Part shown: positions 1 to 64,000 of the stretch, one piece after another
Layout: each line of letters begins with the position of its first letter
How positions within the stretch are numbered: position 1 is the first letter of the stretch
Source of the DNA: Candidatus Stammera capleta
GTDB taxonomy: Bacteria; Pseudomonadota; Gammaproteobacteria; Enterobacterales; Enterobacteriaceae
Direction: 5' to 3'
NCBI GenBank assembly: GCA_036689345.1
Contig: CP144799.1
Coordinates: forward strand, 36,030 to 100,029
Length of the DNA: 64,000 nt
The notes under the pieces: model-generated
Told to the model about the DNA's origin: nothing
The model's input: the letters and a program-made list of their open reading frames with translations, nothing else
The model's database searches: none
Made by a program: the position numbers and the translations under genes

Positions 1-40
1 GAAAATTTTGTAAATAAAATTTGTTTATTAAAAAACTAAA

Positions 41-1486
41 ATGAATATTAGATTTTTACCTGAAGAAACTATTAGAAGAATTTCTGCAGGAGAATTTCTT
101 AATAGTCCTTCTTGTGTTTTGAAAGAATTAATAGAAAATAGTTTAGATGCTAAATCTACTTTGGTTAAAATAGAAATTTTAAATAGTGGTTTAGATTTAA
201 TTAAAGTTACTGATAATGGTATAGGAATTAGTAAAAATGATTTATTAATGTCAATTAAAAGATATTCAACTAGTAAAATATATTTTTTTAGTGATTTATT
301 AAATTTAAATAGTTTTGGTTTTAGAGGAGTAGCTTTATCTTGTATAAGTTATATATCTAATTTTAGTATTTCTTCAAAATCTATTAATAGTAATAATAAT
401 TATGGTTGATTATTATTTAATAAATTTAATAAAGATAAGATATCTTTTTCTATTGAACCAGTAAAACATAATTTTGGTACTATAGTTAATGTTAAAAATA
501 TTTTTTTGAATTATCCTGTAAAAAGAAAAGAATTGTTTTTTTTAGTTAAAAATCAATTTTTTTTAATTAAAAAAATGGTAAATTATTTTGTTTTATCTAA
601 TTATAAAATTAATTTTTTGTTTTATAAGGAAAATAAATTATATAAAAAATATATTAATAAATCTTATAAAGATAAATTTAATATTTTGGAACGTATTAAA
701 AATATATATGGAAAAAATTTTTATAAAAAAAGTATTTATATAAATATAAAAGATAAATATATATCTTTTTGTGGTTATATTTTTATAAATATTAAATATA
801 AAAATATTAAAATTATTTTTTTAAATAATAGAATTATTTCTACTGAAAATTTATTGTATTCAATAGTTAATGATTTTTTTTTAAATTTTTTTGATAAAAA
901 TATTTTTTTTTCTTATATATTGTTTTTTTATACTAAAAGTAAAAATTTAAATATAAATATATGTCCTAGTAAAACTAAAATATTATTTTTAAATTCATAT
1001 TTTATTTTTAATAAAATATATAATAGTTTATCTATGTTTTTTAAAAAAAAAAAAAAAATATTTATTAAAAATGATGTTTATATAATTAATAAATTAACAT
1101 CTAATGATTTTTTTTTTGATAATTATTTACATTATTTTTTAATTTATTTTGGTAATATAATTAATATATTTAATCAACGTTTTGTTTTTTCTGTAAAAAA
1201 AAATGGTTTATTAATAGTTTCAGATTTACTATATGTTTTTTATTATATGAATATATTAATTTTTAAAAAAAAATTTTTTTATTTAATTAAAAAAATTAAA
1301 ATTAAAAAAGTAAAAATATTTTTTAATGAAAATTATTTTATAAATATAGATAGTATTATAAATATTTTAAATATTTTAGGTATAGATATATTTTATAAAG
1401 ATTATTATTTTTTAGTAACTAGTTTACCTGTTGAGTTTTTAAATATAAATATTAAAAAATTTTTTTTATCTTTTTTTTTTTTTTAA
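41..1486 (+). CDS. mutL: DNA mismatch repair protein MutL (short form, degenerate C-terminal half)
   Basis: ATG at 41. Track ORFs 41-409 and 506-1486 share one frame, joined by TGA 407-409 read as Trp. N-terminal GHKL ATPase motifs ELIENSLDA, TDNGIGI, FGFRGVAL. About 481 aa versus 615 in E. coli. Followed by miaA as in E. coli. Confidence 0.85.
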
Positions 1487-1697
1487 AAAAAAATAGAAAA
1501 AAAAATATTTCTTTTAAAATAATAATTTATTGATTATCTAATTATATTATTATTTATAATAAATGAAATAATTATAATATTATGAGGTTAATACATAAAT
1601 TTCATAGTTGTTATATAAAATTTAATTTTAAATTTAAAAAAAAAATTTTTTATTTTTTAAATTTTAATAAATTATATTTATATTATTTTAATAATTT

Positions 1698-2648
1698 ATG
1701 CTTATAAAAAAAAATATTTCAAAAATTTTTTGTATTTTAGGTCCTACTGGTATAGGAAAAAGTTATATAGCTATGGAATTAAGTAAAATTCTTCCTATAG
1801 AAATTGTTAGTGTAGATTCTGGTTTAATATATAGAGATTTAAATATTGGTACAGCTAAACCTAGTAAATTAGAATTAAAATATTTTCCTCATAGATTAGT
1901 TGATATTATTAATCCTAATGATTTTTATTCGGTAAAAAATTTTATTTTAGATTTAATGGAAGAATTAAATGATATTATTTATATTAAAAAAAAAGTACCT
2001 TTATTAGTTGGAGGTACTATGATGTATTTTAATGTTTTATTTAATGGATTATATTTATTACCTGAATCTAATGATAAAATTCGTAATTATATAAATTTTT
2101 TATTTATTAAATATGGTTATAAATGTATTTATAATCTTTTAAAAAAAATTGATTTTTCTTCATATAAAAAAATTCATTTTAATGATAAATATAGAATTAT
2201 ACGTAATTTAGAAGTTTTTTTATCTACTAGAAAAAATGTTTCTTATTTTAAGAAAAATAGAAAATTTAATTTGAATTTTGATATATATAAAATTATTATT
2301 TTACCTAATGATAAAACTAATTTATCAATATTAATTAAAAATAGATTTTATAGTATGTTATATACAGGTTTAGAAGATGAAGTATTTAATTTATATTTAC
2401 GAAATGATTTAAATTTAAATTATCCTTCTATAAAATGTATTGGATATAAACAAATGTGATTATATATTGATAAAAAAATTTCATATTTAGAAATGATTGA
2501 AAACACTATCTGTAGTACTTTATATTTAATAAAAAAACAATTAATTTGATTAAAAAAATGATCTAATAGTTTTATAATTAAAAATGATAATTGTAAGAAA
2601 AAAATTATCAATATTTTTAATTATATTAAAAAAATAATTAATTATTAA
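1698..2648 (+). CDS. miaA: tRNA dimethylallyltransferase MiaA
   Basis: ATG at 1698. P-loop GPTGIGKS. In-frame TGA at 2457, 2547 and 2559 align with Trp of the E. coli motif GYRQMW...QITWLRGW. Stop TAA at 2646-2648. Confidence 0.93.
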
Positions 2649-2658
2649 GGGTATTTGT

Positions 2659-61592: not shown

Positions 61593-62549
61593 TTATTTTA
61601 TATTTAAATCATTTTCTAAATATTGTTGTACTTCTATTGCTGCTATACATCCAGATGCTGATGATGTTATCGCTTGTTTAAATTTATTATTTATTACATC
61701 TCCTGCTGCAAATATACCATTTATATTAGTCATAGATTGATACTTAGAGTTTTTATAATTTGTTATTATATAACCTTTATTATCTAAATTTATTTTTTTT
61801 TTAAATATTTTTGTATTTGGTTTATATCCTATAGCTATAAATAAACCGTCTATTTTAATATTTTTTTTATTTTTATTTTTTAATGATTGTATACAAATAT
61901 TATATAAAAAATTTTTTTTTTTATTTATTTTTATAATTTTATAATTTTTAAAAAAAATTATTTTTTTTTTATTAATTTTTTTTTCTATTTTTTTAATTAA
62001 AAATTTTTCAGATGTTAATTTTCTTCTATGAATTAAATATATTTTTTTTACTATTTTAGATAAATATAATATTTCTTCTGCTGCAGTATTTCCTCCTCCT
62101 ACTATTGCTATATTTTTTTTTTTATATAAAAATCCATCACATATAGAGCATGTAGATATTCCTTTGCCATATAATTTTTTTTCTTTTGGTAAATTTAATT
62201 TTTTTGTAGTACAACCTGTAGCAATAATTAATGATAAACAATAATATTTTTTAATATTTCCTATTAATGTAATATAATTATTATTATATTTTATATTTAA
62301 AATTATATCTTTAATTATTTTTGTTTTAAATTTTATAGCTTGTCTTTTCATATTTTTTATTAATTTATAACCATTTATTCCTTTGTATTCTCCAGGTCAA
62401 TTTTCTATTTTATTAGATTTAATTATTTGTCCTCCTTCATCGTTACCAGTAATTAATACAGGATTTAAATTAGCTCTACCAGAATATATAGAAGCTGTGT
62501 ATCCAGCTGGTCCTGAACCTATAATTATAATTTTTTTAATTTTTTTCAT
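61593..62549 (-). CDS. trxB: thioredoxin reductase
   Basis: ATG at 62549 ([15 protein letters not shown]; NWPG with TGA=Trp). Joined in frame to track ORF 61593-62351. Redox CSICDG (CATCDG), [17 protein letters not shown]. Length 957 nt gives 318 aa. Confidence 0.95.
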
Positions 62550-62675
62550 AATTATTTAAATATTATTAAGAGTAAATTTTGATAAAATATAGTATAATTA
62601 TTATACTAGTTTTTAAAATTTGATTATATATTATTTATATATTAATTTTAATATTAAAATTTTGGTAAAAAATTT

Positions 62676-63962
62676 ATGTTAGATGTTAATTTTTTAATAG
62701 ATAATTATTTTTTTTTATCTAAAAAATTTAGTGGTAGTATTTTATTTAAAGATATTAAAAAATTATTTTATTTTTTTAAAAAAAAAAAAAAGATAAAATT
62801 TGAAATTGAATTATTACAGTCAAAACATAAATTTTTTTCAAAAAAATTTTCTTCTTTTAAAAAAAAAGATATTTTTTTTATAAAAAAAATTATTTATTTT
62901 TTTAAAAAAAATATTTTCTTTAGAAAAAAATTAATTAAAAAATTATCTTATTTATTAAATAGTATATTATTAAATATACCTAATATACCTTATAAGGATG
63001 TTCCAATAGGTAATAAAGATTTAGATAATAAAATTATTTTAAATTGAGGAAAAAAAAATAAATATTCTTTTAAAATTATAGATCATATAACTTTTGGTAA
63101 ATTAACAGAAAATTTAATTTTTAATGATGCTACTAGCATTAGTGGTTCAGGTTTTGTAGTTATGAAAAATAATATTGCTCTTTTATATAGAGCTATATCT
63201 CAATTTATGTTAGATATACATATTAAAAAAAATTTTTATTCTGAAATTTATGTACCGTATATTGTAAATAAATTATCTTTGTATGGTACAGGTCAATTAC
63301 CTAAATTTTATAATGATTTATTTTATGTTAATTTCAAAGAAAATAAAAATAATTATGCTTTAATACCTACATCTGAAGTTTCGTTAGTAAATTTATTTAG
63401 AAATAAAATTTTAAATGAAATAGATTTACCTATTAAAATGGTTTCTAATACTCCGTGTTTTAGAGCAGAATCTAAATCCTATGGAAAAAATAATAGAGGT
63501 TTAATGAGATTAAAACAATTTGATAAGGTAGAGTTAATACAAATTGTTAAACCAGAACATTCTATGTTAGCATTAGAATCATTAACTAATGATGCTGAAA
63601 AAATACTTAAATTATTAAAATTACCTTATCGTAAAGTTTTATTATGTAGTGATTTAATGAGTTTTAGTTCTTGTAAAACATATGATTTAGAAGTTTGATC
63701 TCCTATTGATAAATCTTATATAGAAGTTTCTTCTTGTTCTAATACATGAGATTTTCAATCAAGAAGAATTAATGCTCGTTATAAAAATTTAAATTTAAAT
63801 AAAAATATTTTTGTACATATTATAAATGGTTCAGGATTAGCAGTTGGTAGAATTTTATTATCTATATTAGAAAATTGTCAAATAGATTCTGGTATTGTTA
63901 AAATACCTGATGTTTTATTAAATTATGTTTATGGTTTGAAATTTATTAAAGTAAATAGTTAA
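62676..63962 (+). CDS. serS: serine--tRNA ligase
   Basis: Track ORFs 62676-63047 and 63162-63698 share one frame through TGA. LIPTSEV, TPCFRAE, NGSGLAVGR class II motifs. Stop TAA at 63960-63962. About 428 aa (E. coli 430). Confidence 0.95.
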
Positions 63963-63967
63963 TTTAT

Positions 63968-64000
63968 ATGTTAAAAACTTTTTCTGTAGCACCTTTATAT
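63968..64000 (+). CDS. 5' end of an unidentified CDS running off the window (possibly dihydrouridine synthase DusA-like)
   Basis: ATG at 63968 opens MLKTFSVAPLY. FSVAP resembles the DusA N-terminal RFSIAPM, but 11 residues cannot decide it. Confidence 0.25.
   Translation, partial: MLKTFSVAPLY

Follow-up and report, generated by a model that had tools for sequence, protein, structure and literature searches.

Candidatus Stammera capleta is an extracellular gut symbiont of tortoise leaf beetles (Cassidinae) that belongs to Enterobacterales and has an extremely reduced genome. We analyzed a 64-kb stretch of its contig CP144799.1 (the window, i.e., the whole stretch of DNA under study, to which all counts refer unless stated otherwise), in which a large share of the genes are interrupted by TGA when read with the standard code. 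A first-pass annotation of the same DNA had proposed that UGA is translated as tryptophan (Trp) throughout, as in translation table 4, and that the genome derives from Enterobacterales. The genes and codons that bear most directly on this proposal are listed below; alignments are to Escherichia coli orthologues.

1695-2648, + strand: miaA, tRNA i6A37 dimethylallyltransferase; 3 in-frame TGA codons, 40% identity to E. coli MiaA, 2/2 aligned TGA codons on Trp
6610-24106, + strand: ribosomal block rpsL-rpsG-fusA-tuf plus the S10, spc, and alpha operons to rplQ; 31 genes with 34 in-frame TGA and 4 TGG codons
7467-7469, + strand: TGA in rpsG, the last sense codon (…AFAHYRW), TAA next; on the S7 Trp by global alignment
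7662-7664, + strand: TGA in fusA, at the conserved Trp of TMDWMEQE; each of the 4 TGA codons in this gene is opposite an E. coli Trp
10225-10227, + strand: TGA in tuf (GDVKWEEKI), on an E. coli EF-Tu Trp; 1/1 on Trp, 82% identity over 394 aa
13397-13399, + strand: TGA in rplB (SSRWLG), on an E. coli Trp
13502-13504, + strand: TGG in rplB, a retained Trp codon
17448-17450, + strand: TGA in rpsN, the last sense codon (…KKSSW), TAA next; opposite the C-terminal Trp of E. coli S14 by global alignment
23693-23695, + strand: TGA in rpoA, opposite E. coli RpoA W321 by global alignment
25221-26111, + strand: glyQ; 5 in-frame TGA codons, all on E. coli Trp
37086-39959, - strand: ileS; 18 TGA and 5 TGG codons, 17/18 TGA on E. 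coli Trp, full-length alignment (residues 25-956 of 957)
56728-59115, - strand: lon; 3 in-frame TGA codons, all on E. coli Trp

TGA as a sense codon at tryptophan positions

Stop-to-stop open reading frames (ORFs) of at least 100 aa covered 53 kb when read with table 11 (longest, 529 aa) and 76 kb when read with table 4 (longest, 958 aa). When protein lengths under the two tables were compared, as the first-pass annotation had suggested, full orthologue lengths were reached only under table 4. In-frame TGA was present in 46 of 69 curated genes (67%), which together contain 129 TGA and 14 TGG codons for Trp; UGA accounts for ~90% of Trp codons in the window, including those of EF-G, EF-Tu, SecY, and the ribosomal proteins. 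The claim that genes end only in TAA or TAG held across all 69 genes (64 TAA and 5 TAG). The C-termini predicted with table 4 lie within a few residues of the E. coli ends, and none of the 69 genes has a TGA at the end of its orthologue with an extension behind it.

To assign a meaning to the TGA codons, table-4 ORFs were aligned to ten E. coli K-12 regions. TGA was masked as X, which removed any pull towards Trp, and the tally was made on a greedy non-overlapping set of 55 window genes with E. coli K-12 orthologues. Results showed an E. coli Trp under 91 of 105 aligned in-frame TGA codons, while neither cysteine (Cys) nor glycine (Gly) was found under any of them; the remaining 14 were opposite 11 different residues, in poorly conserved stretches. 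Considering that Trp makes up only 0.92% of the aligned columns, the binomial probability of this placement is ~5e-169. All 12 aligned TGG codons were likewise on E. coli Trp, and of 145 E. coli Trp columns the window has TGA at 91 and TGG at 12. Indeed, rplB keeps a TGG beside its TGA, and both codons are therefore in use, as had been noted earlier from this and other genes. None of the 55 aligned genes is interrupted by an in-frame TAA or TAG or by a frameshift. An apparent class of 20 TGA codons on Cys turned out to be an artefact of antisense ORFs pairing with E. coli antisense ORFs, and it was gone from the non-overlapping set.

Sequence similarity continued across the TGA codons within single genes; EF-G, for example, is 67% identical to its E. 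coli counterpart over 707 aa that span 4 TGA codons. The six TGA codons singled out at first pass (in tuf, fusA, rplB, rpoA, rpsG, and rpsN) are all TGA at the positions listed above and sit in the peptide contexts that had been described, each opposite an E. coli Trp. Three of these sites (rpoA, rpsG, and rpsN) lay just outside the BLAST local alignments and were settled by global alignment. E. coli K-12 S7 extends 23 residues past the AFAHYRW Trp that closes rpsG in the window. The richest single test gene is ileS, which also holds 5 of the window's 14 TGG codons.

The same use of TGA at Trp sites was found in two further chromosomes of Candidatus Stammera capleta, CP144840.1 and CP144825.1. 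The 14 genes from rlmN to serS are collinear between the window and both relative loci, and within these genes the window has 16 TGA codons at the same Trp sites in common with each relative. Interchange of TGA and TGG between the window and these relatives runs both ways, as expected since the codons are synonymous, and in both relatives the ORFs are far longer when read with table 4. All three Stammera lineages have TGA as a sense codon at Trp positions.

The practical cost of the wrong table is visible in public data. A 5.5-kb Logan contig from SRR23946967, an independent assembly, is an exact match to window positions 56499-61977 and carries an identical ClpX. Its code-11 gene calls cut lon into pieces of 301, 202, and 145 aa, three "proteins" with separate Pfam hits, which bears out the earlier warning that a code-11 annotation would shatter genes. 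Fragments of this kind from code-4 symbionts sit in large protein databases. Since table-11 pipelines break two thirds of the genes in the window, code 4 is needed for correct annotation.

Lineage and gene content of the window

The window has a guanine plus cytosine (GC) content of 18.2% and belongs to a genome of 312 kb, values that fall inside the published ranges for Stammera genomes (13.9-20.4% GC and 0.22-0.34 Mb; PMC13462651 Table 2). For lineage comparison we used ClpX, whose gene has no TGA, across one genome per species. It was 78% identical to that of CP144840.1 and 70% to that of CP144825.1, with all others at or below 54%; the corresponding values for Lon in the same two chromosomes were 90% and 80%. 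The code-4 translation of glyQ matches, at 100% identity, a public NCBI protein encoded on a 312,107-bp contig, and dozens of homologues from other NCBI contigs of 212-326 kb, presumably Stammera, are 57-77% identical to the GlyQ of the window. The next-best named GlyQ matches were all from Enterobacterales (Serratia symbiotica, Providencia siddallii, Aschnera, Blochmannia, Buchnera, and Arsenophonus). Given these protein identities, the single name "Ca. Stammera capleta" spans genus- or family-level divergence, and the strain studied here is a distinct lineage inside a very divergent "species."

Other Stammera lineage traits are a Cassidinae beetle host and symbiont-encoded pectinases; no pectinase gene is present within the 64-kb window. 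Further features of the window are as follows.

6122-6293, - strand: tRNA-Leu(UAA) and tRNA-Cys(GCA), the cysT-leuZ pair (ARAGORN, Rfam)
53452-53830, + strand: RNase P RNA, bacterial class A (Rfam RF00010, 159.5 bits)
56609-56684, + strand: tRNA-Arg(UCU), also at the syntenic place in both relative loci (L002 and L003)
59106-60326, - strand: clpX, the marker gene used above

The E. coli gene order that had been claimed for this DNA was recovered in local blocks (mutL-miaA-hflX, speB-speA/metK, rlmN-rodZ-hisS-der, cysS-folD, and clpP-clpX-lon); it does not extend beyond them, and genes have been lost inside the blocks. At the miaA/hflX junction (2638-2648) the two genes abut or overlap, and hfq, which lies between them in E. 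coli, is absent. Also missing inside E. coli-like blocks are ispG, yfgM, and bamB (in the block of rodZ, hisS, and der), rlpA (between dacA and mrdB), and tig (upstream of clpP). In the ribosomal block, rpmC and rpmJ were detected by tblastn, while rpmD (L30) was not found in the window; the gap from the end of rpsE (19324) to the start of the rplO ORF (19331) leaves no space for it. Two of the retained genes are much altered. rodZ (50157-50591) is cut down, as in both Stammera relatives, to roughly the first 87 of the 337 residues of its E. coli counterpart. In mutL (32-1486) the N-terminal ATPase half can still be recognised (residues 1-326 of 615, 26% identity), and the ~150 aa that come after it cannot be aligned.

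The tRNA-modification genes miaA, mnmA, tsaB, and rlmN are kept (1695-2648, 28224-29357, 48455-49195, and 48885-50156, respectively). So is a full cell-wall set within 24128-33364, consisting of alr, dacA, mrdB/rodA, and mrdA/PBP2, whose retention fits the published extracellular lifestyle of Stammera. NCBIfam models confirmed the names assigned by eye to rlmB, fmt, def, alr, mnmA, rsmA, a dedA family member, glyA, tsaB, and trxB. Positions 54013-54207 hold a small ORF with weak conservation in one relative (L002); it was dismissed as low-complexity AT-rich translation.

Readings of UGA and a possible decoding mechanism

The observation and core interpretation of the first-pass annotation, that UGA means Trp in an Enterobacterales-derived genome, are strongly supported. 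The most probable explanation of the data, to which we assign a probability of about 0.96, is that the window comes from a Candidatus Stammera capleta strain using table 4, in which UGA would be a full Trp sense codon, UGG a minority synonym, and only UAA and UAG would terminate translation. Judging from the Stammera literature and general knowledge, strong AT mutational pressure would have driven TGG to TGA, and termination at UGA would have been abolished or weakened through the loss or decay of release factor 2 (RF2, encoded by prfB). UGA may then be read by a lone tRNA-Trp(CCA), a near-cognate, by way of a C-A mismatch at the third base of the codon, a mode of reading proposed because no tRNA-Trp(UCA) occurs in the Stammera clade.

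Several observations weigh against this explanation. TGG makes up 9.8% of Trp codons, compared to 4.4% for G-ending codons in the other two-fold A/G boxes (P = 0.004), an excess that could mean that the cognate codon is still weakly selected, or just that the codon class is younger. A tblastn search with E. coli RF2 and LysS under code 4 detected neither prfB nor lysS in the window and the two Stammera loci, sequence that amounts to about a quarter of the genome and is too little to show absence, and no tRNA-Trp was found in the window (ARAGORN, Rfam) or in the two relative loci. Moreover, prfB occurs in 15 of 49 Stammera genomes and the present genome, at 312 kb, is among the larger ones in the 0.22-0.34 Mb range, which means that RF2 may still be encoded here. 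As neither prfB nor tRNA-Trp is in the sequence covered, the RF2-loss and CCA-decoding steps rest on published data from other Stammera genomes. The window has just three tRNAs, namely tRNA-Leu(UAA), tRNA-Cys(GCA), and tRNA-Arg(UCU), and the 6 kb beyond serS in one relative (L002) contains dusA-like, rpsA, ssb, dnaB, and hemW-like genes with no prfB, lysS, or tRNA-Trp. TGG is no commoner in ribosomal and elongation-factor genes than in the rest of the window.

Among the alternatives, a partial or ambiguous reassignment like that of Candidatus Providencia siddallii PSAC, with a functional or leaky RF2, some UGA stops elsewhere, and readthrough of the rest, would agree with the near-cognate CCA tRNA of Stammera and with the modest excess of TGG over other G-ending codons. 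However, none of the 69 window genes ends in TGA and their C-termini match those of E. coli, while TGA is found in 67% of the genes as opposed to 20% in PSAC (PMC10540940 Table 2) and supplies 90% of Trp codons, among them codons of EF-G, EF-Tu, SecY, and ribosomal proteins. Codon usage bears on the same question. The TGA:TGG ratio was 34:4 in translation-apparatus genes and 95:10 in the others (Fisher P = 1). In E. coli, a 3'-A context promotes leaky UGA readthrough by tRNA-Trp (reviewed in PMC10540940), and we found no 3'-A enrichment, A following 39.5% of TGA codons and 47.2% of all codons. Equal use of TGA in ribosomal and other genes, together with the lack of a 3'-A bias, suits complete reassignment better than leaky readthrough, and on the evidence of the window we regard partial reassignment as very unlikely.

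Under the standard code, the TGA codons would be nonsense mutations in a decaying, pseudogene-filled genome, or G-to-A sequencing errors. Tiny AT-rich symbiont genomes do gather pseudogenes, and mutL and rodZ are truncated or degenerate here. Either cause is nevertheless incompatible with 87% of the TGA codons falling exactly on conserved Trp, with in-frame identity that continues past them in EF-G and, over the full length and 18 TGA codons, in IleS, with the absence of in-frame TAA, TAG, or frameshifts from the 55 aligned genes, with TGA sites kept in lineages that are 20-40% diverged in protein, and with the identity of the independent assembly. We therefore consider table 11 extremely unlikely for this DNA. 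Recoding of UGA as selenocysteine, or as Gly (code 25), is hardly credible; both meanings are known in bacteria, but 0 of the 105 aligned TGA codons fell on Cys and 0 on Gly against 91 on Trp, and 129 TGA codons in 69 genes are far too many for selenocysteine, for which published Stammera genomes have neither tRNA-Sec nor selB (PMC13462651 Table 2). Finally, although very low GC and code 4 are typical of mollicutes and of the non-gammaproteobacterial symbionts Zinderia, Nasuia, and Hodgkinia, an origin in any of these deserves next to no credence, given that the best relatives of the window are Stammera chromosomes, the next GlyQ matches are all Enterobacterales, and the gene blocks are of E. 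coli type.

A conceivable though unlikely possibility is that this strain, with its relatively large 312-kb genome, is an intermediate in stop-codon capture, which would combine full use of UGA as Trp with an intact RF2, or would carry a new tRNA-Trp feature. Such a feature might be a change in tRNA-Trp at position 9 or 24, where the Hirsh suppressor mutations A9C and G24A lie, or a dependence on the i6A37 made by MiaA. In E. coli, this modification of tRNAs that read UNN codons strengthens the suppression of UGA by tRNA-Trp, and the retained miaA could conceivably help tRNA-Trp(CCA) to read UGA. The only points in the window that speak for an intermediate are the retention of miaA and the two-fold TGG excess (P = 0.004). 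If it were one, the strain would be useful for studying how stop codons are captured.

Published Stammera genomes and other code-4 systems

That UGA is read as Trp in Stammera is correct but already known, and the finding adds nothing new scientifically. The first-pass annotation had implied that the case was unfamiliar and had described the insect symbionts among the familiar code-4 bacteria as non-gammaproteobacterial. Both points were mistaken, since Stammera is gammaproteobacterial and its code has been in print since 2017 (Salem et al. 2017, as cited in PMC10540940 and PMC8629427). In fact, Stammera is a textbook case of UGA-to-Trp reassignment in an insect symbiont. The Codetta paper lists it as a lineage in which UGA has changed from stop to Trp (PMC8629427 Table 1), 50 Stammera genomes have been annotated with code 4 (bioRxiv 10.1101/2023.12.12.571295), and the type genome, at 15.4% GC, has no prfB, a trnW that reads UGG (CCA), and UGA in 62% of its coding sequences (CDSs; PMC10540940 Table 2).

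Published genomes also bear on which markers are informative. A 2026 survey of 49 Stammera genomes reported tRNA-Trp(CCA), no tRNA-Trp(UCA), and prfB in 15 of the 49 (PMC13462651 Table 2). In five basal Stammera genomes, which still have prfB, the inferred code is 11, and prfB also occurs in some code-4 Stammera assemblies (gTranslate preprint, bioRxiv 10.64898/2026.05.24.727570). The window, with in-frame TGA on Trp and no TGA gene ends, does not have the UGA stops of those basal genomes. The first-pass annotation had offered a tRNA-Trp(UCA) gene and the absence of prfB as confirmation, and an intact prfB with only a CCA tRNA as refutation. The former test would fail in Stammera, whose published genomes have CCA only, and the latter is not decisive in this clade; since prfB is present in 15 of 49 genomes while only 5 of the Stammera genomes in the gTranslate preprint are inferred to use code 11, its presence does not refute code 4. 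A UCA tRNA and the absence of prfB are unreliable markers here, and alignment of codons to orthologues is the right test.

Mycoplasmatales, Hodgkinia, and Nasuia, the classical code-4 groups, belong to other phyla or classes. Like the window they read UGA as Trp, and their surveyed genomes all lack RF2; unlike Stammera, which has none, they possess a cognate tRNA-Trp(UCA) (PMC13462651 Table 2). Candidatus Providencia siddallii PSAC, a leech symbiont with an incipient code 4, resembles Stammera in belonging to Enterobacterales, in using UGA as Trp, and in keeping tRNA-Trp(CCA). It differs in that UGA occurs in only ~20% of CDSs, about nine apparent UGA stops remain, and prfB is kept with an in-frame UGA (PMC10540940).

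Candidatus Zinderia insecticola shares with Stammera the reading of UGA as Trp, a tiny and extremely AT-rich genome, and a tRNA-Trp(CCA) as the only tRNA-Trp, with no UCA form. Zinderia, however, is a betaproteobacterium, and its tRNA-Trp(CCA) has a 4-bp anticodon stem, which has been shown experimentally to promote UGA reading, whereas that of Stammera has the canonical 5-bp stem (PMC13092985). Because of this canonical stem, the Zinderia mechanism is not obviously applicable to Stammera, and how a single tRNA-Trp(CCA) with a 5-bp stem reads ~90% of Trp codons is a question already flagged in the literature.

Nothing qualitative separates the window from Stammera itself, although its ClpX is only 78% and 70% identical to those of CP144840.1 and CP144825.1. 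The two agree in low GC (18.2% here), small genome size (312 kb), collinear gene order, TGA at the same Trp sites, and TAA and TAG as stops, and the proportion of UGA-bearing genes, 67% in the window, is close to the published 62%.

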